A DNA stretch of 64,000 nucleotides from Cyanobacteria bacterium LVE1205-1 (GCA_041879355.1 CP089922.1:462172-526171), one strand, 5' to 3'. Shown: positions 1,781 through 57,089, counted from the first letter of the stretch. Numbers and translations are program-made. Notes: generated from the sequence alone by a model not told the origin.

Positions 1781-2652
1781 ATGCCCTATTCTTCAGTTCG
1801 TGGAGTTGAACACTATTATCAATGGATTACCCAGTCCCAACTAAATGCCTCAGGGGAACACCATCCGACTGGCAAACCAATATTGGTTTTTGTACATGGG
1901 TGGGCTGGTTCTGCTCGCTACTGGGAAAGTACGGCGATCGCCCTTACCCATGAATTTGATTGTCTACTCTATGACCTAAGGGGGTTTGGACGCACCCGAT
2001 TACCCAAATCTCCCCATAGGGATCTTGACTATGAACTCCACACCTATGCCGATGACCTAGCTCTTTTACTAGACACCTTAGGGATTAACCAAATAACCAT
2101 CAATGCCCATTCTACTGGAGCATCCATTGCGGTTCTTTTTTAAACCGTTATTCCCATCGGGTAAACCGGGCAATTCTAACCTGTAATGGCATATTCCCTT
2201 ATGACCCAAAAGCCTTTTCTGCTTTCCACAAATTTGGCGGCTATGTGGTGAAATTTCGTCCCCATTGGCTATTAACTATTCCGTTTGTTGAACGATTATT
2301 TATGGCGCGGTTTCTCCACCAACCAATTCCACTTTCTCAACAACGAAATTTTTTAGAAGATTTTTTAATGGCTGATGATAATGCTGCTCTGGGTACAATT
2401 TATACTGCTGTAAGTCAAAGAGCAGCAGAAACAATGCCCCAAGAATTTACCCAAATTTCCATGCCTACCCTGTTGGTATGTGGAGAGTATGACCAGATTA
2501 TCCCAACTCCAATGGGACAACAGGCTGCCAACCTTAACCCAAACATCCAGTTTCAGGTATTGACAAAAACAGGTCATTTCCCCATGTTAGAAGACCCAGA
2601 AACCTACCTGCAACTCATTGATTCTTTTTTATCCCACCCAATACCAACTTGA
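1781..2652 (+). CDS. alpha/beta-fold hydrolase, split into two ORFs (1781..2143, 2245..2652) by an apparent frameshift at a T6 run near 2138
   Basis: N-terminal part has the HGWAGS nucleophile-elbow region, C-terminal part ends with the usual GHFPMLEDPE histidine region; the two halves lie in different frames. Confidence 0.7.
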
Positions 2653-2702
2653 CTCCAATGGGTGAACCAGATTCCCGATTTCCTAAGGAGTGGAATTGCT
2701 CC

Positions 2703-2828
2703 GAGAGTATCCCAATGTTGCAAGTTTGCCCTCATCCCCTAGCCCCTTCTTCCTTTTTGGGAGAAGGAGAACCGGATTTCAAGTCCCTCTCTCGTTTAGG
2801 GTGAGGGCTGTAAAATTGGGATGCACCC
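2703..2828. repeat. Dispersed short repeat family A, copy 1 (two conserved arms separated by a 64-bp insertion)
   Basis: Arms GAGAGTATCCCAATGTTGCAAGTTTGCCCTCA and GGGTGAGGGCTGTAAAATTGGGATGCACCC recur at 10233..10280 and 53738..53768; GCCCTCA/TGAGGGC is an inverted repeat. Confidence 0.7.
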
Positions 2829-2852
2829 GTAAAGGTTCATATGGTCTTTATT

Positions 2853-3514
2853 TTATTCTTCCCGTTGAGAAGAAATAGACAAAACTCTTCCGGGGATATG
2901 GCTAATTGTATCCACAACAGCAGAGGCAGCTGCTAAAATATCTCTTTCTTCTCCTCCCAGGTATAACCGTCCAAAACTTCCCACTGCCTGGATTTCTAAA
3001 ATATTAATGAGTGCTGCTTTCTCAGCTTGATTCGCAGCGAGTGCTGCATAGGCAGCCGGAGTTACTTCAAATACATAAAGGGTTTGTCCAGAAAGAAGCA
3101 TTTGTCCCCGACGGGTGCGATTAATTAATTGGGTATGGTGAGGATCAATATTGCGAATAATCTGGCTGGAGACAATGGAAGGCTTAAGTCCATCAGACCG
3201 TTTAACCCCTAATGATTCTAAAATTGCCCGACCTGCTGCCTGGGCTTCCCCTTGTTTGCTAGAATGTATCTCAAGTAAGCCATATAAACGTTCCACAACT
3301 TGCACCCCGGTCGCACTACCGCCGCCTTTAATGCAATATCCATGATTCGATTAATCTCTATACCCGGTGAAATTTCAATCCATAATGATGTATCGCCAGG
3401 TAGGGGTAAGAATCCCACACATACCGTTCCTAGGTAGGCTGCGTGCTGGGGTTGTAAATTATCTAAATAGACATAACTTCGTAGTTCTATACCCAAAACT
3501 AAACTCCCATCCAA
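2853..3514 (-). CDS. ccmP: Tandem BMC-domain carboxysome shell protein, CcmP-like; frameshift near 3305 at a G run
   Basis: Two overlapping minus-strand ORFs (3218..3514, 2853..3305) that join as ...AAVVRPG|VQVVERLYG... if one G is added; both halves show BMC-like motifs ([27 protein letters not shown]). Confidence 0.55.
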
Positions 3515-3669
3515 ACCAATTGGATAGATTTTACCATTGGTTCAGCAACAACCAATGACAGAGAGTCCAATTCTTAGATTGATTTTCCATTTGGTTTTCA
3601 GTAGTGAAGCTGGAATCTGAAACATGAACTTTAACGAGTTGTATGGGACAGTAGGCAGGAATCATGCCC

Positions 3670-4870
3670 CTACACCCCATCCCACGAAAACCCAAAAACT
3701 CCTAACTTCTCTCGTAATAACTGTCCTTCCGGTGACCGCTGAGTTTCATATAAACTAATGGCCTGCTTGAAAGCCAAAAAACTATCTCTAACCTTACCTT
3801 GTTTAAAAGAACAACCCCCAGGTTTTGGTAAGCTTCAGCATATTCAGGCTGTAGGGCGATCGCCTTACGATACTGGACTATCGACTCAGGGAGTAGCCCC
3901 ATAGCTTTAAGAGCAGCCCCCAAATTAAAATAACCCACTGCAAAATCCGGTGCAATGGCAACCACCTTTTCATACAACATACAAGCTTCAGGCAAATCTC
4001 CCTTCCCCTGAAGTAAATTAGCCCAGTTATGGAGGGATCCTAACCGTAGGCGGGGGGAATCGGTTGTTTCCAAGCCATCTGGTAGTGAAATAAGGCTGAA
4101 TCAAATTGGTTTAATTCACTGTAGAAGGTGCCCAAATGAAAATGTAATTCATACTGAACAGCAGAATCAGCAACGGAAACCAATTCCAGCCCCCGATGTA
4201 ACAATCCTAATCCCCTTTCCCGATTTCCTATTTCCCAGCATAAGGCTCCAAATTTACTGTAGAGATAAGCATCATTGGGGTTATCGATTAAAGCCTGTTC
4301 TAAAATATCCTTTGCCCGATTAAACTTATCCTTACGATTGATGCGTTCGGGTTCATAACCTTTATGAAGTAAAGCAACGTCCTGAATGCAGCCCACCCGC
4401 CAGTGGGACTCCTGGTTCAAAATCACTTGAATGCTATCATCTACCAGTTCATGGTAGGGTCGATGAAAAAATATATCAGTTCTGTTGCGGAATAGCCGTG
4501 ACACTAGAGAATAGGGACTTTGATGGGAACCCAATTCATGGCGGAGTAAGTTGATCAGCAGGTAATCATCTTGTTGCATAGCCTGACGCAGTACCGGAAT
4601 CATATCAGGCACCACCACTTCATCGGCATCAAGTACTAATATCCAATCCCCTTTTGCATAACTGAGGGAGTGGTTACGGGCAGCGGCAAAGTCAGACCGC
4701 CAAGGGTAGGAATAAACCTGTACACCCCATTGTTGACCAATTTCAATGGTGGCATCAGTGGAACCCGTATCCACCAGTATCACTTCATCCGCTAACCCTT
4801 GAACGCTGGATAAACAACCAGGAAGTAACTCCGCCTCGTTTTTAACAATCATACATAGGCTTAGCTGCAT
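3670..4870 (-). CDS. Family 2 glycosyltransferase with C-terminal TPR repeats; frameshift at G6 run near 4045 and probably another near 3795, so the 3' end is uncertain
   Basis: N-terminus has GT2 motifs (CMIVKNEAELL, VDTGSTD, LDADE); downstream frames encode TPR repeats. Confidence 0.65.
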
Positions 4871-7606: not shown

Positions 7607-7652
7607 ACTCCCTACCCAATCGTTCCCATGACTGACCCAACTTCACCGTCTA

Positions 7653-8282
7653 TTGTACACCCGCCCTCCCCCTCCCCATCCTCCTAAAGTCCACCAACAG
7701 GGAGAGGAAAGGTCTATCCCCCCGTGGCGATTTTTCATGCCCCTAGTACTTCAGAGTTTCTTAGTTTTGCTGATTCCGGTTCAAAATGCCTATACGGTGA
7801 CATTTGGGCGAACGGTCATTTTACAAACCGTACCCGTGGATCCCTATGATGTACTTAGGGGTTACTACCAGGTACTCAGTTACGATATTTCAATGGTGGA
7901 GCAATTACAGAAATTGCCTGGTGCTGGCTCCTGGCTGACAACACCTCGACCTAAACCAACGAACATCTATGTCATATTAGAAGAGGTTCCCACATCTATC
8001 CAACCACCCTATCCATGGAAGCCCATTGCCATCAGCCCGTCATACCCGGTTAACCTTGCGTTCAACCAGGTGGCTTTGGCGGGTTTTATCCAGGATGGGC
8101 AGGTAACCTATGGGGTGGAACAGTACTATATCCCCGCTGATCAACGGGACGAAATCAATAAAACCATCAATGATACCCAACAACGAAACCCCCAAGCTTT
8201 GGTGATGGAAGTCAAGGTGGATGGGAGGGGAAAGGGAGTCCCAGTTCGTTTATGGATTGGCGATCGCTACTATCAATTTTGA
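7653..8282 (+). CDS. GDYXXLXY-domain protein (alternative start at 7737)
   Basis: Motif PVDPYDVLRGYYQVLSY matches the GDYxxLxY signature; hydrophobic N-terminus from MPLVLQSFLVLL. Confidence 0.5.
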   Translation: MYTRPPPPHPPKVHQQGEERSIPPWRFFMPLVLQSFLVLLIPVQNAYTVTFGRTVILQTVPVDPYDVLRGYYQVLSYDISMVEQLQKLPGAGSWLTTPRPKPTNIYVILEEVPTSIQPPYPWKPIAISPSYPVNLAFNQVALAGFIQDGQVTYGVEQYYIPADQRDEINKTINDTQQRNPQALVMEVKVDGRGKGVPVRLWIGDRYYQF

Positions 8283-8434: not shown

Positions 8435-9411
8435 ATGGGAATTATCAACTGGCTGAGCAACCCGGTTCACACATTGCCAAAAGTGGGCTTTAGAGTCTTT
8501 TCGATTTCGTGTTTAGTGGCAGGGTGGAACGGGGTTCCATCCCTAGCAGAACCTCCCCATGCTTCTATTGTTAGCTCTGTCAGTCCAAACACCCCTTTAC
8601 CATTGGAGCCAACATCTGCCCAATCCAATGGAATGAATTCCTCTGTTAATGTCCAAGTCCTTAATTCTTTCTCGTTCCCCACCCATCTTACAGTTCCGTC
8701 TTTTGCTCAATCCTTGGAAACAACGCCTCAACATGGAGAGAAATCTGGGGTTTTCTCGGGCTTGAGTGACATCTCTGTAACCACCCTTCCCCTTCAACTA
8801 GCCCAGTCTAAAATTGACGTACCTGCCCAAGTGGTAGAACACAGTCCAGTGTTACAGCGTTGGCAGCAAAAAACACCCAATGTTTTAGAGGAGATTGACT
8901 GGGATCCGGCTTTTCGCCCTAGGGTCAGATTTGGTTATACTTATTTCCCCAATGCCCATGACCTAGATGGATGGTCCTTGGGCATTGAAGATGTTTTTAT
9001 TGCCCGTACTCCCTTAACGGTGAGTACCGATTACAACGAAACATTTGATGGACGCCAGACGGGGGGCGGGGTGGATTTAAGATACTATTTTCTACCGTTG
9101 GGATGGTATGGGAATGTAGCCCCCACCATTGGGTATCGCAGCATCAGTACCCCCACTTATTCCACCGAAGGACTGAATCTGGGTTTACGGTTTATGTTAG
9201 CCCTATCCCGGGAGGGGCTGCAGACCTATCTATTAGCCAAAACTGGGTAGGGGTTGCCACTGATAATGAGGTTGGTGTATTTACATTTTCAGTCGGATAT
9301 GCCCTCACCCGTCAAGTGAGACTTTCGGCAGATTTACAAGAACAAAGTTCTAAACTACGGCAGGATACTCGTCTGGGAATTATGGTGGAATGGCTACCTT
9401 CCTTAGACTAA
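8435..9411 (+). CDS. Hypothetical secreted protein; two ORFs (8435..9250, 9103..9411) probably joined by a frameshift
   Basis: Hydrophobic N-terminal signal-like segment, Ser/Thr/Pro-rich linker, second frame continues without intervening stop; no family recognised. Confidence 0.35.
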
Positions 9412-11327: not shown

Positions 11328-12823
11328 TCACTGGGATGAGGTGGGTAGCCAGGTTACAACAGTGGTGCCGGGAGCAGTGGAACAACAAAGTTTGCCGGGA
11401 CTAAAAACTTGTAACGTGCCCCCCATTCGGCTCAAGAGTTGGTGGGCGATCGCCATCCCTAAACCAGTACCTGGAATATTACCTTGAGACTGTATACCCC
11501 GATAATAGGGCTCAAATAAATGGGGGAGGTCTTCCGGTGGAATCCCAGGACCGGTATCACTAATGGCCACTGCCAGAAAGAGGGGACTATTTTTGCCAGA
11601 TAATCCATCAGGATGACCAGATGCAGATTGGATTTGGATTAGACCATTAGTGGGGGTATATTTTAAGGCATTTTCTATCAGATTGTTCAGTACCTCACCC
11701 AAGGCTTTACCATTTACCTGCACATCGGGCAAACCTTGGGACAGACCAATTTCTAAGGTTACCCCCCGTTCTTGGGCGATGGCACCGGCAGTCATCAACA
11801 GGGGAGATAACACACTATCTAGATTGATGGGCATCGTGGTCAGAGAATTTCCACTCAGCCAATCAGTCACTAAATCAGGATTTTCTTCTGACTGCTCCCG
11901 TTCAGGTGAGGATGGCAACGGGTCTAGAAAGTTGGAATAATTTTGGAGTGACGGATTGAGCCGCAATGAAGATTTGATATCCACTGCTTCTTTAGTGACA
12001 TGCTCAATTTGGGTCAGTAGTTCTTGCAAACGTTCACTTTCCCGTACAATACTTACTGCCACTTCCTGGTTGGGGTCATAACTCACCAATCGCTTCATCA
12101 ACAGCTTGCCAAAGGTGCGTAAAGCAGTGAGAGGATTCCGAAATTGATGTAACAAGGCATCCATTAAAAAACGATGGTGGCGTTCTTGTGACTGCCGTTG
12201 ATCTCGGATTTCCATGAGCCACTGGGTACGCTGTTCCAAAACATATCCAAGGGCTAAAGTACGGGCAATATGGTCTACTTCCTTCCGTTCAGTAGGGTTC
12301 CAGGGTCGGTCATTTCGGCAACAGACCAGTAGTCCTTTAGCGGCACCCTCGTGTACTAAAGGGAGTACGATCTGGTGGTCAGGATTCACTGATTCATTCA
12401 GGTACGTCAGAGTTGACCCAGAAAGGGGCTCCACTGAATCTATATAAACTGGTTGTTCAGAATCTAATGAGGAGCCTGATTCCGGGTTCACTGACTGTTC
12501 CCGGTTCCAGGCAGAGGTGGGTAAAATTGAATCCACTGCCCTTTGGAGGGAGACAGGGGAACTTCCCGATAATGAATGGGTGGACGGGGCAGGGGGAAGG
12601 GGACGGAAGACAGGGGAAGGTAAGTTGGGGGGATCCAAGGATGGGTCACTGACCACTCAACAGCAGATTCAGGATGGACGATCAATGGAATTAATTCGGT
12701 ATCCCCTCCATTGACAAGGTCTTTCGCTAAATAAACAATACTGAACGAAGCCCCCAATCCTTGAGCCAAGATAACTTGCGATCGGCATAGGGAAATAAAT
12801 TCCGGGCTGGGGGTCAGTAGCAT
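11328..12823 (-). CDS. Sensor histidine kinase; frameshift at G6 run near 12638
   Basis: H-box region HRFLMDALLHQFRNPLTAL, C-terminal HATPase with GTGLGMAI; upstream ORF 12488..12823 continues the N-terminus in another frame. Confidence 0.75.
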
Positions 12824-13264
12824 GGGAATGAGGAAGAAAAGGGGTAAATCATTAAAGTCAGTGGGGAAGATGGGTATAAGGATGGGATTAAACGTGATTC
12901 TCCATCCTTATATCCATACTTCCCCTATCAATCCATGGTGAATGATTGCCAAACTAAAATAATGGGTAATTAAATGATACCAATCTTAGTGAACCCAGTC
13001 TTTACCGATTAGAAAAACTCCCAAGGGATTGTTCATTCCCTCCTGGGAGTGGGAACCATAGGGTTAGGTTCCCAGTACTTTTCTTTTGGGGGATGTCACC
13101 ACTCTCCTTCGTCCTTGATTGTATGTCCCCATAACTGGTACTAGACTCCATGGAAGGAAATAGTAGGATACACCTGGTGGTTCGTTGCCAACCTACGCCT
13201 TGGAAATGAAGAGTATCAGGATATAATCAAGAAAAAGAGTTCAAACCATTATCGGTACTCAGAG

Positions 13265-14310
13265 GTGTGGGTTACTTCTTCTTTCAATAACATTCGGGTT
13301 CCTACCATTACAGCACTGGGAAATTTTGATGGTATCCATCTAGGACATCGCCAAGTTATTCAGCCAGTCCTGCCCCGTGATCTCAATTCTGATCAACGGT
13401 GGGGAGACGAGAAAAATAGTGTTCCTGAGTCCATTGGTGAGCCCCCTTACTCCACTGTTCTTACATTTTCGCCCCATCCCCAAGAGTTTTTCTCCGGAAA
13501 ACCCCGGTTACTTTTATCACCGTTGACTGAGAAAATAAGGCAACTGGCATTCCTTGGCGTGGAACAATTGGTATTACTCCCCTTCAATCAAGAGTTATCC
13601 AACCTGACTCCCCAAGCCTTTGTGGAAACTATTTTATTGGATTTGCTTAAGTGTCAAAAAATTTCCATTGGAGAAGACTTTAGATTTGGGTATCAACGGA
13701 CAGGAACAGCAGCAGATTTAAGGGCGATCGCGGAACGTTTTGGTATTCCAGTTACCCTTGTTCCGCTCCATACCCACAATCAAGAACGAATTAGTAGTTC
13801 TGAAATCCGAGCAGCACTTGAATCTGGTCAATTGGAAAGGGTAAACTCCCTTTTAGGGCGTTCTTATACCATTCAAGGACAAGTAATACCAGGAAAACAA
13901 ATTGGGCGCACTTTAGGCTTCCCCACCGCAAACCTGAAAATCCCATCGGAAAAGTTTTTACCATGCTCAGGGGTATATTGTGTTTGGGTATGGGAGTTGA
14001 TGAATCTAACCACAGCATGGCACCAAGGTGATTCTTTCTCTATTCCTTATCACACCATGGCAACGGATGGGTGGGAACGACGACCAGGGGTGATGAATAT
14101 TGGATATCGTCCCACCCTGGGGGGACGCAACAGAGTATTGAAGTTCATTTATTAGATTGGACTGGAGACTTATACGGAAAAACATTGGTATTGAGTTTAG
14201 AAAAGTTTTTGCGCCCAGAACAAACGTTGTCATCATTACCCGCTCTTCGGAATCAAATTGCGGTTGATTGCCAAATTGCCCGTCATTTTTTTTCGCTTTC
14301 TTCTCGGTAA
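13265..14310 (+). CDS. ribF: Bifunctional riboflavin kinase / FAD synthetase RibF; frameshift at G6 run near 14118
   Basis: N-terminal GNFDGIHLGH; C-terminal riboflavin-kinase motifs (GFPTANL, EVHLLDWTGDLYGK) continue in the +1 frame. Confidence 0.85.
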
Positions 14311-17986: not shown

Positions 17987-18525
17987 ATGTCCAACATCAA
18001 AACTATTTTGCCTGAACGTTTCCCTGAAGAAGATCATCCATCTAACCCCCATCATTCTACTCATGTTGTCATTCATACCGACGGCAGTTGTATTGGAAAT
18101 CCTGGACCGGGGGGATGGGCAGCAATTTTACAATGGGGTTCCCATCGTCGTGAAATTAGCGGACGGTTCAGGGAAACAACTAATAACCGCATGGAACTTT
18201 GGGGGCGATCGCAGCATTGGAAGTTCTTACCCAGCCTTGCAACATTGACCTTTACACCGATAGTTCCTATGTTCGGGACGGAATTACCCGATGGATTAAA
18301 GGGTGGAAGAAAAATGGTTGGCGAACTGCGAATAAACAACAGGTTAAAAACCGAGACCTATGGGAACGATTACTATGTGCCCTAGAACGACATCAATTCA
18401 GTCAGACGGTCACATGGCATTGGGTTAAAGGTCATGCAGGGGTTTCATTAAACGAAGAAGTTGATCAATTAGCAAATCATGCAGCTCGTTCCGTAACTAA
18501 CAATGACCCTGTGGATCAGGGTTAA
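17987..18525 (+). CDS. rnhA: Ribonuclease HI; frameshift at G5 run near 18205
   Basis: [28 protein letters not shown] then AIAALEVL in next frame, [16 protein letters not shown]. Confidence 0.85.
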
Positions 18526-18561: not shown

Positions 18562-18634
18562 TGGAGGTTAGCGGACTCGAACCGCTGACATCCTGCTTGC
18601 AAAGCAGGCGCTCTACCAACTGAGCTAAACCCCC
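18562..18634 (-). tRNA. tRNA-Ala (anticodon TGC)
   Basis: Reverse complement folds as a 73-nt cloverleaf: acceptor GGGGGTT with G3:U70, D-arm AGCTCAGTTGGTAGAGC, anticodon loop TTTGCAA, T-arm GGTTCGAGTCC. Confidence 0.95.
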
Positions 18635-19647: not shown

Positions 19648-21030
19648 CTATAAACCGAGTATAGCCAGGTTACCAATGTCAAAAAGACCAGCCATACAAC
19701 CAATCATTAATGTAGCTAAAGTTGCTGCCCACAGAGCTTTCCATCCAATTTCAACTATTTCAGACTTACGTTGAGGAACCAACCCTACCAGCCCCCCCAC
19801 AAATATACCAACCGAAGGAATATGGGTAAAACCGCAAAGGGCATAACTCAAGATTAATAGGGCGCGATGACTCAATACCCCTTGATTGGACAAATTAGCC
19901 AATTGTAAATAAGCAGGGATTTCAGTTTCTAATACCCTTTGTCCTAGTAACACAGCCCCAGCCCAAAGTTCAGTCCATTGGAATGAGATTCCTAGACAAA
20001 AGGTCAAGGGTAAAAAGAAAACCCCCAATATGTTTTGAATGCTAACTACTTGGAAAAAATTACCGATGAACTGTAACCCTACGTTAGGGCTTTGTGCTAA
20101 GGAAGCAAAGTTAAGGAAAACCAGATTGACTAAGGACACCAATCCAAGGACTGCAATCAAAATGGCGGCGATTGTAACAGCCAGTTTAACTCCTTCCATG
20201 GCTCCTTCAATCACACTGTCCATGGGGCTAATCCGTAGAGTATCCAAACTGTTTTCATCAATTTCTGGTGGTAAACTTCCCAATGTTTGAGGCAACTCTC
20301 GTTCTGGTACTAATAGTTTAGACATGACAAAACAGGCAGGAATCGCCATAAATGAAGCAGATATTAAATGTCCGGTAATCCCGGGAAAGACCGGTCTTAA
20401 AATACTTGAATAAAGTGCCAATACTGTAGATGCGATGCTTCCCATGCCAGATGCTAAAATGGTGCATAATTCACTACGGGTCATGGCAGATAAAAATGGT
20501 CTGACGACTAAGACTGATTCAATACCAACAAAAATATTCGCTGCTCCACTCAATGATTCTGCCCCGCTTAAGTACATTGAACGACAAAATACATGGGCAC
20601 AAAAATTAATGATGGGTTGTATGACCCTCAAATGATAGAGCAACGCAATGAAAGAAGAAAAAAAGATAACGGACGGCAGTGCTCTAAATGCAAAAATATA
20701 CCCTAAACTAATGTGATCTGGGCTGAGGCGATCGCCCGGAATGGGTACATAAGGGGAGGTCAAGGCTCGGGCAATCCAGCGACCTGCTAAAACTGGACCA
20801 GGGGTAATAGTTGGATTAGGAACCAATAGAGAGCCAAAGACAAACCGCGAACCAGCCTCTGCTGAGTCTAAAACTGCATTAACACCATTATTCAGTGCTG
20901 AAAATAGGATACGAGTTGGCGGTACAGTAAATACCAGAAGTGCTAAAACAAACTGGATACCAATGCCCCAGGCAATTACACGCCAAGGGGGCGGCTGCGA
21001 TCCTCCGAACCTAACCATGCAATTCCACAA
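19648..21030 (-). CDS. Concentrative nucleoside transporter, NupC/CNT family
   Basis: 460-aa polytopic membrane protein with FVFGSLL motif; true start may be downstream of 21030. Confidence 0.6.
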   Translation of the reverse strand: MWNCMVRFGGSQPPPWRVIAWGIGIQFVLALLVFTVPPTRILFSALNNGVNAVLDSAEAGSRFVFGSLLVPNPTITPGPVLAGRWIARALTSPYVPIPGDRLSPDHISLGYIFAFRALPSVIFFSSFIALLYHLRVIQPIINFCAHVFCRSMYLSGAESLSGAANIFVGIESVLVVRPFLSAMTRSELCTILASGMGSIASTVLALYSSILRPVFPGITGHLISASFMAIPACFVMSKLLVPERELPQTLGSLPPEIDENSLDTLRISPMDSVIEGAMEGVKLAVTIAAILIAVLGLVSLVNLVFLNFASLAQSPNVGLQFIGNFFQVVSIQNILGVFFLPLTFCLGISFQWTELWAGAVLLGQRVLETEIPAYLQLANLSNQGVLSHRALLILSYALCGFTHIPSVGIFVGGLVGLVPQRKSEIVEIGWKALWAATLATLMIGCMAGLFDIGNLAILGL

Positions 21031-21238
21031 AGCAGTACAATCCCTAGTGCTGAAATTAGATTTAAACCCAAGTTCATAGTAGTCTCCGGAACATCTAACC
21101 CCATTTAGATAGTTTATTCACTGTTTCTGGTATTATCCTATTTTCCCAAGAGCAAGCTTGAAAATACAGCAGAAATAATGGGTTAAGGCTTAATGCCTAA
21201 CCCATCCTACCGTATTGTATAGACTTAGGTTGGTAACC

Positions 21239-22287: not shown

Positions 22288-23465
22288 TTATAAAACAGCG
22301 GCTATCCTATCAACCACGTGCTCTAGCACCTCTGGTTCATGTACCAAGGCAAACCGCACAAACCCCTCGCCAGATTTTCCAAACCCGGCACCTGGAGAAA
22401 CGGCAACCCCTGTATTTTCAACTAGATAGGTACAAAATTCCAGTGATCTGTTTTCCCACTTTGACGGCAGCTTTGCCCAAATATACATGGTGGCCTTCGG
22501 GATAGGAACTTGCCAGCCAATTCGACTTAATGCCTGGATAAAGGCATCCCGACGACGACGAAAAACTTCTGTGGATCGACCCACTCCCCCTTGAGGACCT
22601 GTTAAGGCAGCGATCGCCCCTTGTAAAATTCCTTGGTACTGGTTAAAGTCCACCATTGCTTTAATATTGCGTAAAGCCAAAATTAATTCACGATTTCCGA
22701 TGGCGTAACCCACTCGGAATCCACCCATGTTATAGGACTTAGATAAGCTAAAAAATTCAATCGAAACAGTTTTCTGGGGATCTGCCTGGAGAATCGATGG
22801 TGCAACCTGGGTTTGATGAACAGTAGGGTCAAAGATGAGATCGACATAGGGGAAATCATGGACAAGAGCTAAGTTGTGACGTTGACAAAACTCGACTGCA
22901 GATTGAAAAAAGCTAAGGGAAGCAATGGCAGTGGTGGGATTGTGGGGATAACTGAGTACCATCATGCGGGACTGCTCCAGAACCGCTATGGGAATTTCGG
23001 TAAAAACCGGCAAATAGCCGTTTTCTTCCCGTAACGTCATGGGATACATTTGACCGCCCGCCAGCAGAACCCCCCCATATGGGATGGATACCCCGGATCC
23101 GTTAACAGGGCAAAATCACCAGGATCTAGTAATGCAAGGGGTAGATGGGCTGTCCCTTCTTGGGAACCAATTAACGGTAATACTTCAGTTTCAGGATCTA
23201 CGGAAATCCCAAATTTTTGGGTATACCAATTTGCGGCGGCGGTTCGGAATGGGCGAGTTCCATGGAATAGCAGGTAACCATGGGTGCTAGCATCTGGCAG
23301 TGATTGGGCGATGGCATCCAGCACATGAGGCTCCACTGGTAAATCCGAGGAACCCAAGGATAAATCAATTACATCCAGTCCCCCAGCCTTCGCCCGCGCC
23401 TTAGCTTGATCCATATCGGCAAATACATTGGAGCGGAGGGGTGCTAAACGTTGGGCAAATTTCAT
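22288..23465 (-). CDS. PLP-dependent class I/II aminotransferase (AspC/DapL-like); frameshift at a 7-nt C/G run 23070..23076
   Basis: N-terminal ORF 23037..23465 and C-terminal ORF 22288..23049; reading across the homopolymer gives ...HMGG|VLLAGGQMYPMTLREENGYLPVF; SYPHNPT region present. Confidence 0.8.
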
Positions 23466-38471: not shown

Positions 38472-40029
38472 TTAAAAGACTGGGGATTCTAGAGGCTCTA
38501 TTTCTTCATCCGTTTGTATCCTTGGCGGCGGAAAGTCTAGGGATCGTCCATAAATATCAGTGAAATACCGCAGGCGATGGCAAATTTCCTCACATTCTAC
38601 TGCCTCCGTGCGATATCGCCAATCCCAATTACCAGTGGCAGTCCCAGGGGTATTCATGCGTGCATCTGTCCCCAGTCCTAAAATGTCTTGAAATGGGAAT
38701 AAAGCCCAGTTGGCTACAGAACTCATGGCGTGACGGATCAAATCCCAATGAATACCATCGAAATTATTGTAACCTAAATAACTGCGGATATGGCGTTGTA
38801 AATCGTCGGATCGACTGTAAAACCAGCCCACAGTGGTGTCGTTATCATGGGTGCCTGTATAGACAATGGAGTTTTTCCGATACTGAAAGGTCAGATAGGG
38901 ATTTCGGGCATCTGAATCGAAGGCAAACTGCAAAATATTCATGCCGGGGAAATCAAAGCGATCGCGCAGGGCTTCCACCTCCGGGGTAATCACCCCTAAA
39001 TCTTCAGCCATAATGGGCAGGGAGCCTAGTTTTTGGGCTAAGGTTGTAAACAATTCCTCCCGGGAGCCTGCACCCATTCTCCATTTATAGCAGTGGTTTC
39101 CCCCTTTGGAACTGCCCAATAGGATTCAAAGCCACGAAAATGATCCACCCGGATCACATCTACAATCTCTAACATGGATTTAAACCGCTGTACCCACCAC
39201 TTAAATTGATTTTTTTTCAGATGCCTCCAGTTATAAACTGGATTGCCCCACAACTGTCCCGTTTTGCTGAAGTAATCAGGGGGAACACCTGCCATCAGCG
39301 CCACTTCTCCCGTTTTTTCATCCAAGTGAAAGTTTTCTGGATTTGCCCACACATCTGCACTATCGTGGGCTACATAAATGGGGATATCCCCAATAATGGT
39401 AATGCTTCGGTCATTGGCATAGGTTTTTAAGGCATTCCATTGACAATGGAATTGATATTGCAAAAATTGGTGATAAAAAATCTCATCAGTAAATTGTTTG
39501 CGGTATAAGGCTAAGGTTTCGGGTTTACGCTGCCGTAGATTTGGATCCCATTGATACCAGCTTTGATTAGGGTGAGCATACTTACACGCCATAAATAGGG
39601 CATAATCATCCAGCCAACTGGATTGATGGATGCAAAATTGTTCAAACTGTTTTTGAATTGCTGGGGTTGCCTGTTGCCGGAATCGGGCACATGCTAACCG
39701 AAATAACCCATCCTTAAAGGCAATCACCCCATCAAAATCAATATGATCCAGCGGAAAGTCAGGACTATTTGCCAGTTCAGATTTATCCAGCCATCCCTGC
39801 TCTTCCAATAATTCAGGACTAATGAGTAGGTGGTTACCGGCAAAGACGGAATAGGAAAGGTAGGGGAATTACCATATCCCGTAGGTCCTATGGGCAGGAT
39901 TTGCCAATAATGTTGATGACTGGACATCAAAAAATCAATGAACCGATAGGCAGATGAACCAAAATCTCCAATTCCATATGGACTGGGGAATGAACTGGGA
40001 TGGAGTAAAATTCCACTACCTCTGGGCAT
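38472..40029 (-). CDS. malQ: 4-alpha-glucanotransferase (disproportionating enzyme, GH77); split into three ORFs by apparent frameshifts
   Basis: ORFs 39724..40029 (GILLHPSS...GIGDFG), 39038..39808 (IIGDIPIYVAHDSADVW, VDHFRGF), 38472..39119 (EDLGVITPEV) are colinear. Confidence 0.85.
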
Positions 40030-40789
40030 AGTTTCACCTCGCTACAATTAAGAAAACAAAAAATGTGCTAATGAAAGTGACAACTCCCACCGTCAACCGC
40101 TAAGAGCGGTGTGAAGGGAGCTGCTCAAATTCACAAATGAGAGTTATTGTCTCACAGGCTGTGCATCCATTAAGCCTCCACCAGTAGCAAACGGTTGTCC
40201 TACCGTCCGTTCAAGTAGGTTCAAACTTGCGTTTAATCCCTGTCTAAACTGACTCCACCATTAGGGCAATCATGAACTCGAATCGACTGTTGCTTGTCTG
40301 ATGGGAAACCCGTCAAGAATTGGACGGTGGAGGACAACTGGAATCTCACCAATTTTTGACAGCTTTATATGCCATCTACTAAGTACACTCCAGCCTTTGG
40401 GCATTGACTTGAGGCAAGGTGAAAGAACAAATATCCCCCTGTTTCTTCAATCTAGGCTTACCTCCTCTCTTACCAGTTTTATCAGGAATTAACCACCCCT
40501 TCCAGGATTTATCCAACCCCATTATATTCTGTTGTTGGCAGTCAGCCTAAATCTCCTTGTACTCAGGAAATAATCCTAGCGTTTCTTTAAGGTCAGCCGC
40601 TTGTGAATAGTAATCTACGTTGCTTGGAATATCGCCAATTGGCTCACTTCCCAGACTGCAACGGTCGAACTGAGACCTGGTATAACGCAACAATTTTCCC
40701 CAGTGGTTCAAGGTCGCCCCCTGCAGGAGTGTTGGTTACAATCGGTACTGATATGTTAGTAGTATTATACTATTATCTTATTTAGTGCC

Positions 40790-40891
40790 ATGAGCTATAA
40801 CAAAGGCTATAGATGCCTATACTCCCTTACTATTGATTTAGTATTTGTCACAAAGTACCGCAAAAAGATAATTGACAAGGGGATCCTGTAA
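40790..40891 (+). pseudogene. IS200/IS605-family TnpA N-terminal remnant (33 codons)
   Basis: MSYNKGYRCLYSLTIDLVFVTKYRKKIIDKGIL resembles the TnpA N-terminus (HLVFVTKYRRKVL pattern); truncated, followed by repeat family B element. Confidence 0.4.
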
Positions 40892-40929
40892 AGATTGCAC
40901 GAAATCGTTGCTAATACCTGTGAACCTGG

Positions 40930-41077
40930 TTGACTGACAAAAGTTGTACGCCCTCACCCCCAACCCCTCTCCCAGGGGGCGAGGGGAGCCGATCCACCCC
41001 TCCCGGTTCCCTCTCCCATCGGGAGAGGGCTAGGGTGAGGGCTTTCGGGGTTTTGGCTGAGAAGTTTTGTCAGTCAA
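40930..41077. mobile_element. MITE-like element (repeat family B, full copy) with terminal inverted repeats
   Basis: TTGACTGACAAAAG at left, TTTTGTCAGTCAA at right; internal palindromes CCCTCTCCCAGGGGGCGAGGG and CCCTCTCCCATCGGGAGAGGG; left half repeated at 19546..19606. Confidence 0.7.
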
Positions 41078-41140
41078 TCAGGCTTCTCACCAATCCCCAC
41101 TCGCCAGGGTACTAATTCAAACCTAGTCAACAAATCCAAT

Positions 41141-41172
41141 CAACAAAAAAGGTGTGGACAATGTCCACACCT
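41141..41172 (-). terminator. Rho-independent terminator downstream of psbA
   Basis: Perfect hairpin GGTGTGGACA/TGTCCACACC followed on the minus strand by a T6 run, about 30 nt after the psbA stop. Confidence 0.7.
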
Positions 41173-41198
41173 TTTGTCATTCATCCCATCAACTCAAA

Positions 41199-44327: not shown

Positions 44328-45172
44328 TTAATCCTCCTTTAGGTAGCGTGGACGTTCTTTTTGAGTTTTTTGTAACTCCTGTGCCAGCTTGTCCCAGTGA
44401 GATTGCTCAATTTGGTCAATGAATCGATCTAATGTTTGTCGATACTGATGGAGCGATCGCAGTAAACAGGATTGATTATACTGAGCCATCATGGTTCCTA
44501 ATTCTGGATTTCCTCCCCCCACCCGACTGGTGTCGCGGAAGCCACTGCTGGATAACTGTTGGGATATTTGTTTGACAGTGGTATTATCCTCTTCCAGGCA
44601 GGCGGCAATTAGGCTGGCACTAACAATAACCGGGAGATGGGAAATCCACGCTACACTGCGGTCATGGTTACTAGGACTGCAATGGTATAAACGGGCATTT
44701 AATGAATGGACTAGTTTCTCTACCCTGGCTAATGCTTGGGGAGACGTGTTATCTACGGGAGTGAGGACATAGGGGCGATTGGCAAATAAACCGGGAGTTG
44801 CGGCACTGATGCCGTCTGTGGTTTTACCAGCCATGGGATGCCCTCCAATAAACTGTTTCCACAAAGGGCTAATTGCTTCAACAATAGGTTCTTTAACGGA
44901 ACCAACATCAGTTAAAATAGTATCAGGTTGTAAGTATGGAATTAACTGTTGTACGGTTGGTACAATTGCAGCGATGGGGTGCAGAGAAAAATCACCTCCG
45001 TATCTTTCAACAACGATAGGTGGATGCTGGCGTGATCAACTATTCCCATTGCGATTGCTTGATCGCCAGTTTCGGGTTGACGGCTGACTCCCTTAACGGT
45101 ATGCCCTAGGGTTCGTAGGTCAAATCCCAGTGAGCCACCAATCAAACCTAAGCCAACAATTCCAATCTCCAT
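44328..45172 (-). CDS. tyrA: Arogenate/prephenate dehydrogenase TyrA; frameshift between 44864 and 44942
   Basis: N-terminal Rossmann IGIVGLGLIGGSLG in ORF 44942..45172; C-terminal MAGKTTDGI...HDRSVAWISHLP in ORF 44328..44864. Confidence 0.8.
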
Positions 45173-45272: not shown

Positions 45273-46973
45273 ATGGAGCTTTCCTCTGAACCCATTCAGA
45301 ATTCTAGTCTACCCCAAGAGCATCACCCCCCCGACCACGGGATGATGGGGGCGGGGATGACGATACTCACTGGAACGCCCCCATAGGTGAAATCTTAGCT
45401 TGGATCAGTCACGAGTTTAAACCCCCTCACTGCTATCCTCGGATTATCGAGCTTATTAAAAGAACAAGATTTAGGGGAACTAAGCGATCGCCAGCTTCAT
45501 TATATTAATTTAATTCATCAGAGTGGAAGTCATTTAATTCTGTTGTTAAATGAAATACTCTTATTCACTCAACTTCAATCTGGTTCGGTGGAACTCTATC
45601 CCACGAAAGTAGACGTTGAACGAACTTGTCAATATACGTTTGACAGTGCCAGGGAGTTATTCCAAGCCAACCCCTCAACAAATCATTCAAACGTAGAAAT
45701 ATACTTTGATTCCCATTCAGTACAGGACAGTATTGATATTGATCCAGGTTTGGCATGGGTGATCACTGATGAATTACGTTTGCGCCAAATGTTGGTTTAT
45801 CTATTAACCACTGCTCTTAAATTAAGTGATTCCAGCATTGATATAAAACTCCAGGTCCACCAATGGGATCAGCATTGGATTGGATTCACTGTTTGTTATC
45901 GGGGAGTTTGTTTTCCCAGAGAAAAAAATGGGTTACCCCATCATTTTCCAGAATTTTCCCCTTCCTCCCCAAATCCATTTGAAGGGAGTTATTTAGGATT
46001 AGTATTGATGCAACGTTTAACCCATCTCCAAGGGGGAATGGTTACTGTTCGTTCAATTGGGGAACAAAGGAGTGAATGTACCCTATTGCTACCATGTAAA
46101 TACGAAACCCTGGGAGTTGGCATCCCCCATCTGGGTGGCGAAACGGTTACTTCATTAGTGGTGGTAGAGCCCACCAGTTATGAATTAATTTTACTGGCAC
46201 AAGACGATCCATGGATAATTGAGAGTTTGTCGGCACAATTACTTGAATTGGGATATCGGGTGGTAAATGGTTATACCTGCTCGGATGTGTTGCGCAAGGC
46301 TCGATTACTACAACCCAGAGCGATTTTACTCAGTGCATCGTTATGGGCTAACTCTCAGTTTTCCTTGTTTGATTTACTCCATGACTGTCCAGAAACTTGC
46401 CATATTCCCCTGGTGATGACTGTCCAGGAAACAGAACCATCAGCCTTCCCTAGGGAGGGGGAGAGGGAAATGATTCAATTACCCATATCGTTATCCAAAC
46501 TTGACGCAACAGTCCGAAAAAATTCTTCCATCGTTGTTGTATCGGAACAAATCTTACCCCCCAACCTGACCATATTACAGTTATTAGACAATCATCATCA
46601 GGGTGAACCCCAGTATGGTTTAGGATGGATTGGGAATTTATTTCATCAAAAGCACTATCGCTTAATCGAAGCGGAGGAATTGGAACAGGCTAATTTATTA
46701 GCACGAATTTGGAAGCCAGATTTGTTATTACTAACCACTTGGGATAAGCGGGAAGGTTTTTGGCAATTCTTTGAGTTTCTCCAGGATTATGATGGGCTCT
46801 CTCCATTACCATTGGTAATTCTTAATCATTGTTCCCATAGGATAAATCCCGTCCAGGGGCTATCCCTATTGATTTGCCCCATTAGTCATCTAGACAGGAC
46901 AGAAGACTATTGGATCCATCCTGATGCCTTGAATTTATGCAAAACTTTGCGACGGGCTGTTACTTCCCATTAA
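45273..46973 (+). CDS. Histidine-kinase-like protein with degenerate ATP-binding motifs and two pseudo-receiver domains; two frameshifts at C7 (about 45322) and C5 (about 45420) runs
   Basis: After frame correction the H-box reads ISHEFKPPLTAILG; N-box Asn replaced (YLLTTALK), G1 reads YRGVCF, G2 reads GSYLGLVL; two receiver-like segments lack the phospho-acceptor Asp. Confidence 0.55.
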
Positions 46974-49212: not shown

Positions 49213-50723
49213 CTAGAACCGCTTCACCATGGATAATGCAGCTCGTGCTTGCTCTCGGTCATCAAAGTGAATTTTTTCAATCCCCAAGATTTGATAGTCT
49301 TCGTGACCTTTACCCGCAATGAGAACTCCGTCCCCTGGCTTGGCATTCACTATGGCGGTGTGAATGGCGGCAGCCCGATCGGGAATCACTTGCACAGATT
49401 GAGGAGTGAGGGGGGAATTCCAGTCATAATATCTGTCAGGATGGAATTGGGGTCTTCTGTTCGGGGATTATCTGAAGTGATGATGACTTGATCGGCTAGT
49501 TGGGCTGCAATAGTACCCATTAGAGGACGTTTGGTTCGATCCCGATCGCCTCCACAACCAAATACACAAATCATCTGACCTGGAATAAACGGACGGGCTG
49601 CCCGTAGTAGGTTTTCAAGGCTGTCAGGGGTGTGGGCATAATCCACAATTACACTGATGTCTTGGGATGGAGAGGTCACGATCTGTTCCATTCGTCCAGG
49701 TACTCCAGGGAAGGATGATAAATGGGTGATCATTGTCCCTAAATCAAGCCCTAAATGAATCCCGGTGGCGATCGCAGCTAATACGTTGGATAAATTGTAC
49801 TCTCCCACTAAGGGAGAGAAGAAATCAACTTCAGTGGAGGGTGTGGTTAATCGTCCTTTTACCCCATTGGTTCCATACACTAATTGATGGGTATATACAT
49901 CTGCTTGGGGGTTGTGGACGCTGTAGGTCAACAAAGAGTTTGTCGCTTTTGTTAACACCAACTGGTGAACCAATTGGACTCCGTAATTATCATCAATGTT
50001 GATGACGGCTGAACCCTTTAAGTAATCAGGACTAAACAACAAAGACTTGGCTGCATAGTAATTTTCCATAGTCCCATGATAGTCTAAATGATCTTGGGTT
50101 AAATTAGTGAACACACTTACAGCAAACTCACATCCCAATACCCGACTTTGGGCTAAGGCATGGGAACTTACTTCCATAATACAAAATTCACAGCCTGCTG
50201 CAACTGCACTGGCCAGGTGTGCTTGTAGTTGTATGGCAAAGGGAGTGGTGTGAATGGAGGTATGTTCATAGCCCTGCCATCGTGCATAAAGGGTGCCCAA
50301 AAGCCCGGTTGGTTTATGAACGCACTGAAGCAAATGTTCGATTAAATGGGTGGTAGTGGTTTTACCATTGGTTCCAGTCACCCCCACTAGCTTTAGTTGT
50401 CTTGCCGGATATTCATAAAAGGCTGCCGCAATGTGGGCACAGGTTGGTACCATCTCTTTACATGGAATCAGGCAGGCATGGTTGGGATTGGGGAGTGTGG
50501 CGGCATCCATGGTGACGATGGCAGCAATTGCCCCCAATTGAATCGCCTCCGACCAGAATTGACCACCATCTACCTTTGTTCCCGGCATTCCTAAGAATAG
50601 GTACCCTGGTTGGCAAGTATGGGAGTTGGTACTAAGTCCCGTTACATTTTGTTCTAGGGCATGATGATCAGGAATTGACGTTGCAAGGGAGGGAACTAGT
50701 GCCAGTAAATGTCTTAGTTTCAT
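49213..50723 (-). CDS. murE: UDP-N-acetylmuramoyl-L-alanyl-D-glutamate--2,6-diaminopimelate ligase MurE; frameshift at G6 run near 49410
   Basis: P-loop [15 protein letters not shown]; C-terminus AGKGHEDYQ in 60-aa ORF 49213..49395. Confidence 0.85.
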
Positions 50724-51011: not shown

Positions 51012-51786
51012 ATGCTTGACTTGACTGGAAAAAATGCTTTGGTAACGGGAATTGCAAATAACCACTCCATTGCCTGGGGAATCGCTCAACAACTCCATAA
51101 AGCGGGGGCAAATTTGGGGGTCACCTATTTACCCGATGAACGGGGACGCTTTCGTCAAAAAGTGGCTGACTTGACTGCCCCCCTCAATCCATCTGTATTT
51201 ATGCCCTGTAATGTTCAGGATGATAGACAGGTTGCGGAGTTGTTTGGGGCGATCGGGAATCAATGGGGAAAATTGGATATTGTCATTCACTGTCTGGCTT
51301 TTGCCGATAAGGAAGGATTATCCGGGGACTTCAGCAGTGTATCACGGGAAAGTTTTATGAAATCCTTGGATATTAGTGCCTTTTCGTTGGTGCAGTTTGC
51401 ACAGGGTGCGAAACCTTTAATGCATGGTGGGGGTAGTATGGTCACCCTTAGTTATTTAGGAGGGGTGCGGGTCATTCCCAATTACAATACCATGGGCATT
51501 GCGAAAGCTGCTTTGGAAATGAATGTTAGGTATCTGGCTGCTGAATTGGGACCCCATAATATCCGTGTCAATGCCGTTTCTGCCGGTCCCATACGAACTC
51601 TGGCTTCTTCAGCGGTGGGGGGATTCTTGACATGATCCATCATGTTCAAACAACGGCTCCTCTCCGTCGTACCGTAACTCAACAGGAAGTGGGTAATGCG
51701 GCTGCATTTTTATGCAGTGATTTATCCAGTGGGATTACTGGTCAGGTATTATATGTGGATTCCGGTTATGGAATTATGGGGATGTA
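51012..51786 (+). CDS. fabI: Enoyl-[acyl-carrier-protein] reductase (NADH) FabI; frameshift at G6 run near 51622
   Basis: [20 protein letters not shown], catalytic Y..K region; C-terminus (...[14 protein letters not shown]) in next frame. Confidence 0.85.
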
Positions 51787-52250
51787 ATAGATCTAGAGGT
51801 AAAACCGCTTTGATTGTAGCTTGAGTGCAAACGCCTTAACTCCCTCGTCCCGGGAGTGGGGAAGGAAGAACCCAGGTTCTGTCCAAGACGACATTGGACT
51901 AGGTAGGACACTCCTTCCCTCCATAGGGATGGATTTTCACGTCCAAACGCTTCCGCATAGCGTTGATATTCAACTAGTACCGCTTGCCAATACTTAGCGA
52001 CCCTATTGGATAATCATGTCCCCATGACCAAAATAAAAATCGCTTTCTTTGTTCCAGCTTGGGGTGCCAACGTCCAATTACTGGTGGTTTAATCAACCCA
52101 TCCCACCAATATGTTTTCTTCGCCCATGCTTGTAATTCTAGTAACACCATCATAACCCCATAGTTTAGTGTAGGATTATCTTGATTGAGGGGGAGAACTG
52201 CCTTTTAATGCCCCAGTCCTATAAAATATGAGTAGAAAACCATTTTTGAA

Positions 52251-53768: not shown

Positions 53769-53838
53769 ATTTTAACCCTCTTCATGTCCAATTTGATTGC
53801 AATAATAATTCCTAGGAACCATTTACTTCCAATCAACC

Positions 53839-55008: not shown

Positions 55009-55095
55009 CAGTTCCAATAGACAGTAATCCCTTAATTTCGTTTTTGATCCATAGTTTTTATAAAAAGCCCCACGTTCTTAAATTCCTAAACCCCA

Positions 55096-55518
55096 ATGGA
55101 CATTGCCACCCCAGATGATTTATTTACCGTAGCGATCGAACGCTATAAGGCAGGAGAACCAATTGCAGAATTAATTCCGTTATTTAAGGAGATTTGTCAA
55201 CGTTTTCCTAAAACCAGTGCCCCCTGGACCTGTTTAGCCTGGCTTTATTTACTCAGTGATCAGGGTAACTTAGCATTAGAATCAGCCAAAAAGGCCTTAA
55301 AATTTAATGCCCAAGACCCCCAAGCCAGGGTGAACTTAGCATTAGCTTTATTAGAAACTCAACAAAAAGGAGTTCGGAGTCATGTAGAAATATTGCAACA
55401 TTTGATCGCCACATCCTCTGAAGTCCGGGACGAAATTGAGACCAGTATTGATGATGGGCTGACCCGTAAGCCGGAGTGGAAAGCATTGTTAAAAATGAAA
55501 CAATGGCTGTTCAGTTAA
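55096..55518 (+). CDS. Small TPR-like helical protein
   Basis: 140 aa, helical repeats with TPR-like W/LG/Y/A/P spacing. Confidence 0.5.
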   Translation: MDIATPDDLFTVAIERYKAGEPIAELIPLFKEICQRFPKTSAPWTCLAWLYLLSDQGNLALESAKKALKFNAQDPQARVNLALALLETQQKGVRSHVEILQHLIATSSEVRDEIETSIDDGLTRKPEWKALLKMKQWLFS

Positions 55519-55542
55519 AGAGTCGATTGCTGTAAAATTCCC

Positions 55543-56499
55543 ATGCCAAATCCTCCTAACTTACCCCCGTCTGAAGTGACCCCTGAAGACGTTTTCCTGA
55601 ACCGTCGAAAATTCATGAAGACAGCCATATGGGTCGGTTCTACCATTACCACAAGTAGTGTTTATCAAACCCTCAAGCCTGCCCCTAAAGTGGAAAATAC
55701 AGGGAAAGACATTGTGGTTTCCGCTTCACCATCCAAATCTGCCTCCACTGACGAGTTAAGTCGTTTTCAAGACATTGCTGGCTATAACAATTTTTACGAA
55801 TTTTCAACTCAAAAATCTGCAGTTGCTGCCCGCGCCCAATCCTTCGTTACGAAGCCATGGACAGTACAAGTAGGGGGGTTGGTACAAAACCCCATTGCCC
55901 TGAGTTTGGATGATATTATGGGGATGGAGGCAATAGAGCGCATCTATCGATTCCGGTGTGTGGAGGGCTGGTCCATGGTCATTCCCTGGGTTGGTTTTCC
56001 CTTATCCAAATTACTGGAACAGGTAAAACCGAAGGATGGAGCCACCCATGTTGCTTTTGAAAGTTTTTTCGATCGCCAGCAAATGCCCTATGCTCTCTTT
56101 TCTGGTATTCCCTTCCCTTATCTGGAAGGGTTACGACTAGATGAGGCAATGCACCCCCTCACCTTATTAGCTACGGGTCTCTATGGGAAAACTTTGCCAA
56201 ACCAAAATGGTGCCCCGGTGCGGTTGGTTGTTCCTTGGAAGTATGGATTTAAGAGTATTAAGTCTATCGTAAAGATTACCGTCACCGACCATGAACCAGT
56301 AACCACTTGGAATCGGGCAAATCCTAGGGAATATGGGTTTTATTCTAACGTTAACCCCACCGTAGACCATCCCCGTTGGTCCCAAGCCCAGGAACGTCGG
56401 ATTGGTGAAACTAGGCTTCGTCCCACCTTGATGTTTAACGGTTATGGTGAAGAAGTTGCCCATCTTTATGATGGTATGGATCTTCGTCGTTATTTTTGA
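55543..56499 (+). CDS. msrP: Protein-methionine-sulfoxide reductase catalytic subunit MsrP (YedY-type molybdoenzyme)
   Basis: Tat-like N-terminus ([12 protein letters not shown]), sulfite-oxidase-family core with RFRCVEGWS. Confidence 0.85.
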
Positions 56500-56502
56500 C
56501 CT

Positions 56503-57089
56503 ATGAATTCTTTAAGAGCTGATAGTCAATTTCATCGTCATTTAATTCTGGTCAATGGATTAATCCCAATCCTTTGGATTGGGATGGATGGATGGCAGGG
56601 GCAGTTGGGGGCAAATCCGGTGGAGTTTGTCACCCGAGCTACTGGTATATTATCCTTACTTTTTTATTACTTACTCTGGCGGTAACCCCACTCCGACATT
56701 TATTCCACTGGATTTGGCTAATTAAACAACGTCGATTGCTGGGGCTCTTTTCTTTCTTTTATGCCATCCTTCATTTGTTAGCCTATGTGGGGGGCGATCG
56801 CGGCTGGCAACTACTCTCCATTCCCGCTGACATCATCCGTCGCCCATTTATTACTGTTGGGATGATCAGTTTGTTATTAATGGTGCCTTTGGCAATCACC
56901 TCTACCCATGCCATGATTAAGCGATTGGGGGTAAAACAATGGAAAATACTTCATCGTCTGGTTTATATTATTGCCATTGGCGGGGTTATCCACTATGCCT
57001 TAATTGTAAAGTCAGATTTTACCTATCCCTTTTTATTTGCCATTGTTCTCACTTTTTTCCTTGGTTATCGCCTTCGGTTAACTTCCTAA
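56503..57089 (+). CDS. msrQ: Methionine-sulfoxide reductase heme-binding subunit MsrQ (YedZ); frameshift at T-run near 56665
   Basis: Two ORFs (56503..56685, 56574..57089) in different frames; conserved His in transmembrane helices (HLLAY, HYAL); 3 bp after msrP. Confidence 0.8.

Follow-up and report, generated by a model that had tools for sequence, protein, structure and literature searches.

Why should a cyanobacterial chromosome that stands in the public record as complete carry so many conserved genes in pieces? The question is raised by a 64,000-nucleotide stretch (CP089922.1:462172-526171; hereafter the window, with positions counted from its first letter) of Cyanobacteria bacterium LVE1205-1, a metagenome-assembled cyanobacterial chromosome available from NCBI and JGI/IMG as a single contig of 3,276,681 nt. 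The window has a G+C content of about 45%, and its housekeeping genes are of the usual kind (e.g. clpX, hisS, the cta operon, psbA, murE, and fabI); the NCBI proteins of this stretch are XGB39770-XGB39805. An initial annotation, made from the DNA alone, had claimed that at least 18 genes between positions 1781 and 57089 are split by frameshifts, that every junction traced lies at a homopolymer run, and that indels of sequencing or assembly are responsible. Our follow-up confirmed the observation, which reflects a sequencing artefact and not a biological feature. With a probability of roughly 93%, the frameshifts are errors in the assembly consensus rather than features of the DNA of the organism.

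To detect split genes, neighbouring open frames on the same strand (stop to stop) were translated and then scanned against Pfam, and the window was aligned by blastn with its syntenic relatives. The comparison set consisted of more than 20 syntenic contigs from other metagenome assemblies or metagenome-assembled genomes (MAGs) with 97-98.4% DNA identity, including the freshwater MAGs REEB444 and WB6_1B_304; assembler-style contig names (k141_, NODE_..._cov_, scaffold_) suggest that these sequences are of short-read origin. The alignment covered 58.3 kb with 1,105 mismatches, and 48 genes of at least 100 codons within the aligned part served as the denominator. The only contig recovered by a metagenome scan was 97.3% identical, belonged to another strain, and has G7 at the murE junction. 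In a collection of species-representative genomes, no close relative was found (the best HisRS match, from Jaaginema sp., was 69% identical), and the distant orthologues at those loci occupy a single frame in tblastn searches.

Twenty-six frameshifting lesions were found in 21 genes between 1781 and 57089, i.e. about 44% of the larger genes (21 of 48) are broken, and the earlier figure of at least 18 holds, if slightly understated. Neighbouring fragments match successive parts of one Pfam profile, and both halves retain a strong family signal. The initial annotation had proposed a comparison of the junctions with orthologues from close relatives, and this gave a uniform result: all 21 broken genes are single intact open reading frames (ORFs) in every relative, with one more base at nearly every junction. 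It had also stated that adding or removing one base restores a conserved protein, and this held when the bases were repaired in silico. The ORFs were regained, and 15 of the 21 had exactly the length of the relatives' gene calls; the other six differed through the choice of start codon or through small secondary indels that were left unrepaired (2639, 13177).

The link to homopolymers stood in large part. Of the twelve junctions named beforehand, eleven were correct. The T6 near 2138 occupies 2136-2141 and is T7 in relatives; the G6 runs near 4045, 12638, 24005, 49410, and 51622 lie at 4052, 12627, 24007, 49410, and 51617, and each is G7 in relatives. The G6 near 14118 begins at 14119, and the G5 near 18205 begins at 18201 and is G6 in relatives. 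The 7-mer at 23070-23076 is a C7 beginning at 23070, though the missing base is an A adjoining the run. The two junctions near 45322 and 45420 correspond to a C7 at 45326 (C8 in relatives) and an A3C5 at 45419-45426 (A4C6 in relatives). The twelfth junction, a T6 near 27935, was wrong, as the T6 at 27938 lies past a stop codon and the true lesion is an extra G at 27911. Not every junction falls in a long run, either. Sixteen of the 30 frameshift-type coding differences touch runs of at least 5 bases, and one third of the lesions are found in runs no longer than 4 bases or away from any run, including sites in 3-mers (33650, 39059, 9213) and in 4-mers (39863, 44980, 3809, 3309).

The enrichment is nevertheless strong. 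The 16 of 30 differences that touch a run of at least 5 bases compare with a background of 4.6% (binomial p = 3e-14), and nine touch a run of at least 6 bases against a background of 1.5% (p = 4e-10). Bases are missing from the window in 25 of the 30. To measure length dependence, every homopolymer in the relatives was tabulated against its length in the window. The relatives' G/C runs were shorter in the window in 1 of 1214 3-mers (0.1%), 4 of 355 4-mers (1.1%), 2 of 93 5-mers (2.2%), 5 of 22 6-mers (23%), 6 of 8 7-mers (75%), and the single 8-mer (1/1, 100%). For A/T runs, the proportion did not exceed 1.5% through 6-mers and was 3 of 18 for 7-mers.

A simple mechanism most probably accounts for this pattern. 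Homopolymers, and G/C runs especially, would be read one base too short while bases are called or the consensus is built, with a probability that would climb steeply with run length and with a few single-base insertions added. Each miscount would shift the frame, and gene callers would then annotate fragments or a pseudogene in place of the gene. The consensus would be of a long-read type that was never polished with accurate reads, and the true DNA of the strain would carry the longer runs. When a metagenome yields a single megabase-scale contig, long reads that were not polished with accurate ones are the likely source, and such an origin is suggested here by two contigs, of 3.28 Mb and 2.48 Mb, both from metagenomes. 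Assemblies built from long reads only typically keep homopolymer indels, and their gene calls are fragmented by frameshifts (PMC9262707). Two further reports likewise document long-read homopolymer-length indels that fragment gene calls (PMC8812927; PMC12007338).

A few further features of the runs were recorded. On the plus strand of the whole window, long runs are asymmetric, with 22 G6 and 7 C6; five of the G6 are truncated G7, and the remaining asymmetry may stem from gene orientation and from Pro/Gly codon pairs. Three G6 runs are packed into 35 bases (62184-62218) where a bactofilin gene on the minus strand (62196-62912) has its 3' end, and the proline-rich tail of this gene, in a region without coverage by relatives, is likely to hold a further homopolymer miscount. 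Two clear insertion errors fall inside a GATC or at a distance of 3 nt from one; at 25144, GATC became GAATC. Several deletions are in G/C runs that abut GATC, in the contexts GGGGGGATC, GGGGGCGATCG, and GGATCCC, and the sites touched are 25144, 27911, 12627, 18202, and 33650, together with 22776 in a second assembly of the strain. A link to GATC methylation was considered and set aside as too weak, since 4 of the 30 sites lie within 5 nt of a GATC against a background of 4.6% (p = 0.046); the proximity might at most hint at base-calling affected by methylation.

Could the genes instead be truly decaying? In this scenario, a mutator (e.g. mismatch-repair deficient) or degenerating lineage would have accumulated fixed -1 homopolymer indels at a density of about one in 2 kb, and the broken genes would be genuine pseudogenes. 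The deletion bias and the dependence on G/C-run length do resemble mutator spectra. Selection gives a different picture. The ratio of nonsynonymous to synonymous polymorphism (pN/pS) relative to the relatives is 0.154 in the broken genes and 0.183 in the intact ones, and relaxed purifying selection in the broken genes was thus not seen in this comparison. When the 21 broken genes are read in the relatives' frame, they contain no in-frame stops and no larger deletions; the lesions are only indels of one base, apart from two -2 cases. The broken set includes fabI, murE, dapL, ribF, rpsA, ctaD, and tyrA. The first five of these are normally indispensable and cannot all be null in a free-living cyanobacterium, and decay would knock out all five. 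Moreover, a free-living freshwater cyanobacterium with 98% identity to intact relatives could not have about 44% of its genes broken. Genuine decay is therefore very unlikely, and the earlier attribution to indels of sequencing or assembly, not to pseudogenisation, is supported by the intact relatives, the second assembly, the length dependence, selection, and gene content.

The relatives also served as a control. Sequences up to 2.8% apart carried no coding frameshifts, and their few indels were intergenic; relatives at the 2-3% distance of the window thus show none among themselves, which again speaks against decay. The non-coding stretches of the window itself (e.g. 40042-41198) have indels in both directions that are not linked to homopolymers. 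The pattern at 40042-41198 is the signature of natural variation. This segment comprises 1.1 kb between malQ and psbA without ORFs, its indels are of both signs and of various lengths, and no Rfam family matched it.

A second assembly of the same strain provided the closest comparison. Contig Ga0496538_0457 (2.48 Mb) of JGI metagenome 3300045937 overlaps window positions 12289-49076. Over these ~37 kb, the two sequences differ by 1 substitution and 6 single-base indels (18202, 22776, 23070, 27911, 28208, 39863). Four of these sites (18202, 27911, 28208, 39863) are junctions in the window that are in frame in Ga0496538_0457, and the other two (22776, 23070) are extra deletions in dapL that belong to Ga0496538_0457 itself. 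The set of broken genes therefore varies with the assembly, as consensus error predicts. The indel-to-substitution ratio within the strain is 6:1, whereas alignments between strains show 1,105 mismatches and a few dozen gap openings, and an excess of 6 indels over 1 substitution is a further argument against decay. Between the window and sequence L086, the sole difference over 20,606 bases was the malQ site 39863. A literature search found nothing on the LVE1205-1 record, JGI metagenome 3300045937, Ga0496538, or the sequencing platform.

Differences between assemblies of one strain might also reflect true heterogeneity in tract length, in the population or among chromosome copies and resembling phase variation, with each assembly showing a different allele. 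Cyanobacteria are polyploid, and the six indels that separate the assemblies of this strain all involve one base, five of them in a G or C run. However, the genes hit are housekeeping genes and not surface or restriction-modification contingency genes, and tracts of 3-5 bases are much too short to slip appreciably. In addition, both assemblies have the out-of-frame allele at most sites, and as a majority allele this would be lethal in genes such as fabI and murE. Such heterogeneity is extremely improbable. The same judgement applies to a variant in which the short runs are real in part of the population: that polyploid chromosomes carry segregating -1 frameshifts in core genes is hardly credible, and it is equally hard to credit that these are tolerated through wild-type copies or through slippage during expression.

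Another reading is functional recoding, in which programmed ribosomal frameshifting or transcriptional slippage at the runs would yield the full-length proteins. Almost nothing favours it: an IS3-family transposase in the window (59442-60355) shows the classical A6 -1 layout, yet it lies outside the finding. Orthologues that are 97-98% identical have one base more and are in frame, no recoding site is conserved, the contexts of the sites are heterogeneous, and four sites are in frame in the second assembly. The probability of recoding is practically negligible.

Several points weigh against the preferred explanation of consensus error. The true run lengths are deduced from relatives that differ by ~2%, not from reads of this strain, and the assignment of the window to long reads and of the relatives to short reads is deduced from contig size and names. 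Mismatch-repair-deficient lineages also gain length-dependent -1 indels in G/C runs; the two spectra look alike, and the sequence pattern alone therefore does not discriminate between them. The main residual uncertainty is that most lesions are common to both megabase-scale assemblies (about 15 of the 19 in the overlap), which would also fit real mutations and counts in favour of decay. Lesions common to both assemblies fit equally with a systematic, context-dependent error or with shared reads.

The individual lesions are described in their order along the window. The gene for an alpha/beta hydrolase (1781-2652, plus strand) has a T6 at 2136-2141 (site 2142) in place of T7, one T fewer than in relatives L087-L089; this -1 lesion splits a 294-aa protein into fragments that match Abhydrolase_1 at 1-84 and 86-245, and repair gives 290 aa. 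In a CsoS1D-like gene (2853-3514, minus), one base is missing at 3305-3310 (site 3309), where the window reads C4GG and the relatives CACCTGG; their protein has 214 aa with CsoS1D_N, and the repaired ORF has 220 aa. A GT2-TPR glycosyltransferase gene (~3670-4870, minus) has two lesions, the first at 4052-4057 (site 4058; G6 versus G7) and the second at 3805-3808 (site 3809; A4 versus A5), and the repair of both gives 400 aa, the length in relatives. The gene for a GDYXXLXY protein (7628-8282, plus) is interrupted near the N-terminus by a -2 lesion at 7668-7672 (site 7673; C5 versus C7), and its repaired product of 218 aa likewise equals that of relatives. A hypothetical gene (8435-9411, plus) is extended from 271 to 325 aa when the G3 at 9210-9212 (site 9213) is restored to G4.

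The GAF histidine kinase gene (11328-12823, minus) has G6 at 12627-12632, where five relatives have G7, and repair lengthens the product from 442 to 498 aa. In ribF (13150-14310, plus), the run at 14118-14125 (site 14119) lacks a base at its margin and reads T-G6-A against TAG6A or TAG5AA in relatives; the fragments match Flavokinase at 1-70 and 68-124. The RNase HI gene (17987-18525, plus) has G5 at 18201-18205 (site 18202), compared with G6 in relatives and in the second assembly, where a 179-aa gene is intact; its fragments match RNase_H at 3-48 and 50-140. Just downstream lies a tRNA-Ala(TGC) on the minus strand (18562-18634), the sole RNA gene in the 64 kb according to ARAGORN and Rfam. 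The nucleoside transporter gene (19648-21104, minus) is affected near the N-terminus at 20987-20992 (site 20992), with G5-C for the relatives' G5-T-C, and it grows from 460 to 485 aa upon repair.

The dapL gene for LL-diaminopimelate aminotransferase (22288-23465, minus) reads C7A at 23070-23077 (site 23078), compared with C7AA in relatives and C6A in the second assembly; the fragments match Aminotran_1_2 at 3-116 and 110-361, and the repaired protein has 392 aa. A PhzF-family gene (23509-24362, minus) has G6 instead of G7 at 24007-24012 (site 24013), with fragments that match PhzC-PhzF at 1-129 and 157-280 and a repaired length of 284 aa. In a methyltransferase gene (24393 to ~25344, minus), the lesion is a +1 insertion at 25143-25144 (site 25144), AA versus a single A, by which the relatives' GATC becomes GAATC; their gene call has 314 aa. 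The gene for an SBP_bac_5 peptide-binding protein (26606-28264, plus) carries the extra G at 27911, which lies in no homopolymer and has no counterpart in relatives or in the second assembly, and another lesion at 28208-28212, where both of these have G6 instead of G5; in the second assembly, the gene is intact with 553 aa. In rpsA, encoding ribosomal protein S1 (28574-29602, plus), a C5 at 29527-29531 (site 29532; C6 in relatives) lies six codons ahead of the true end and produces a false 342-aa tail instead of the 326-aa protein.

In two further genes, three fragments match one profile. In ctaD, which encodes cytochrome oxidase subunit I (32710-34378, minus), the first lesion is a C3 for the relatives' C4 at 33647-33649 (site 33650), right after GGATC, and the second is a C5 for C6 at 33178-33182 (site 33183); the fragments match COX1 at 2-199, 190-368, and 354-436, and both repairs give 556 aa. 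In malQ (38472-40029, minus), the first lesion is at 39863-39866 (G4; G5 in relatives and in the second assembly) and the second at 39059-39061 (C3; C4 in relatives), with fragments that match GH77 at 1-51, 48-310, and 304-463 and a repaired length of 519 aa. The tyrA gene for prephenate/arogenate dehydrogenase (44328-45172, minus) has G4 for G5 at 44976-44979 (site 44980), PDH_N fragments at 3-55 and 54-153, and 281 aa once repaired. A second histidine kinase gene (~45273-46973, plus) has C7 for C8 at 45326-45332 (site 45333) and A3C5 for A4C6 at 45419-45426 (site 45422); the latter consists of two adjacent -1 lesions, which together with that at 45333 bring back the original frame, and the relatives' call has 565 aa. 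The murE gene (49213-50723, minus) has G6 for G7 at 49410-49415, Mur_ligase_C fragments at 1-91 and 96-127, and a repaired length of 503 aa, and fabI (51012-51787, plus) has G6 for G7 at 51617-51622, adh_short_C2 fragments at 1-187 and 189-235, and a repaired length of 258 aa. Finally, msrQ (56503-57089, plus) has T6 at 56660-56665 (site 56660), where ten relatives have T7, and its repair gives 195 aa.

Some candidates were not retained as errors. Site 57207, in another alpha/beta hydrolase gene (57193-58131), was rejected, as 312-aa and 326-aa forms both occur among relatives; which form is present depends on one T close to a G run at the 3' end, and the difference represents a natural polymorphism. 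Sites 45172, 2639, and 13177, at gene ends or starts, may also be natural variation. The cobS and bisphosphate nucleotidase genes are separate and intact, as are the members of the msrP/msrQ and folB/cpeS pairs, none of which is a split gene; a CCG-domain gene (25341-26246) is intact as well, with 301 aa as in relatives.

Beyond the split genes, synteny with all relatives stops at 59383, and a cluster of mobile-element remnants occupies 59383-62100, probably a strain-specific insertion region. In the IS3-family transposase (59442-60571), orfA (HTH) overlaps orfB (HTH_21 and rve) in the -1 frame at an A6 (59716-59721). The overlap represents natural programmed frameshifting and mimics the pattern of the errors. 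In the same element, an in-frame TAG (60353-60355) parts rve from rve_3 and is the only nonsense-type lesion seen in the window. An IS1-like InsA/InsB pair (60719-61347) has a -1 overlap without a homopolymer, and an IS66-like fragment lies at 61487-61876.

The value of these results is practical and not biological, namely a quality warning for a public "complete" MAG. The window contains about one frameshifting error per 2 kb, and by extrapolation from ~28 sites in 58.3 kb, the 3.28-Mb contig probably carries roughly 1,500 of them. The GenBank accession numbers (XGB39770-XGB39805) are consecutive across at least 11 broken genes, i.e. those for RNase H, the nucleoside transporter, and the methyltransferase, as well as dapL, phzF, ctaD, malQ, tyrA, murE, fabI, and msrQ. 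As consecutive accessions skip these genes, it appears that they were deposited without protein products, presumably as frameshifted pseudogenes. Without polishing or frameshift correction of the assembly, any metabolic reconstruction, pangenome analysis, or claim of gene loss that is based on this record would be wrong.

Known systems help to place the finding. Genome decay in Mycobacterium leprae and in the obligate symbiont 'Nostoc azollae' proceeds with nonsense mutations, deletions, insertions of insertion sequence (IS) elements, relaxed selection, and the loss of genes that are dispensable, not of core genes. The large fraction of interrupted genes is alike, whereas the window has only small indels, a normal pN/pS, and broken core genes. 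The tracts of phase-variable poly-G/C loci in Neisseria, Haemophilus, and Campylobacter reach about 8 bases or more and belong to surface or restriction-modification genes; these loci share with the window G/C-run frameshifts that vary between copies, but the tracts of the window span 3-8 bases, in housekeeping genes. In Buchnera and Blochmannia, transcriptional slippage rescues genes at long poly-A tracts that are conserved across strains. Homopolymer frameshifts in conserved genes are common to both cases, but the runs in the window are mostly short G/C runs and the relatives are in frame. The closest likeness is to the indels of long-read-only assemblies as described in the literature (PMC9262707; PMC8812927; PMC12007338): these are single-base changes, mostly deletions, concentrated in homopolymers, and they fragment gene calls. 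Inflated pseudogene counts, megabase-scale metagenome contigs, and differences between assemblies of one genome are shared features as well. The window differs from these descriptions in a G/C bias that extends to 3- and 4-mers and in a few insertions within or beside GATC, both of which could not be matched to one chemistry. In such assemblies, indels of this kind are corrected by short-read or reference-based polishing.

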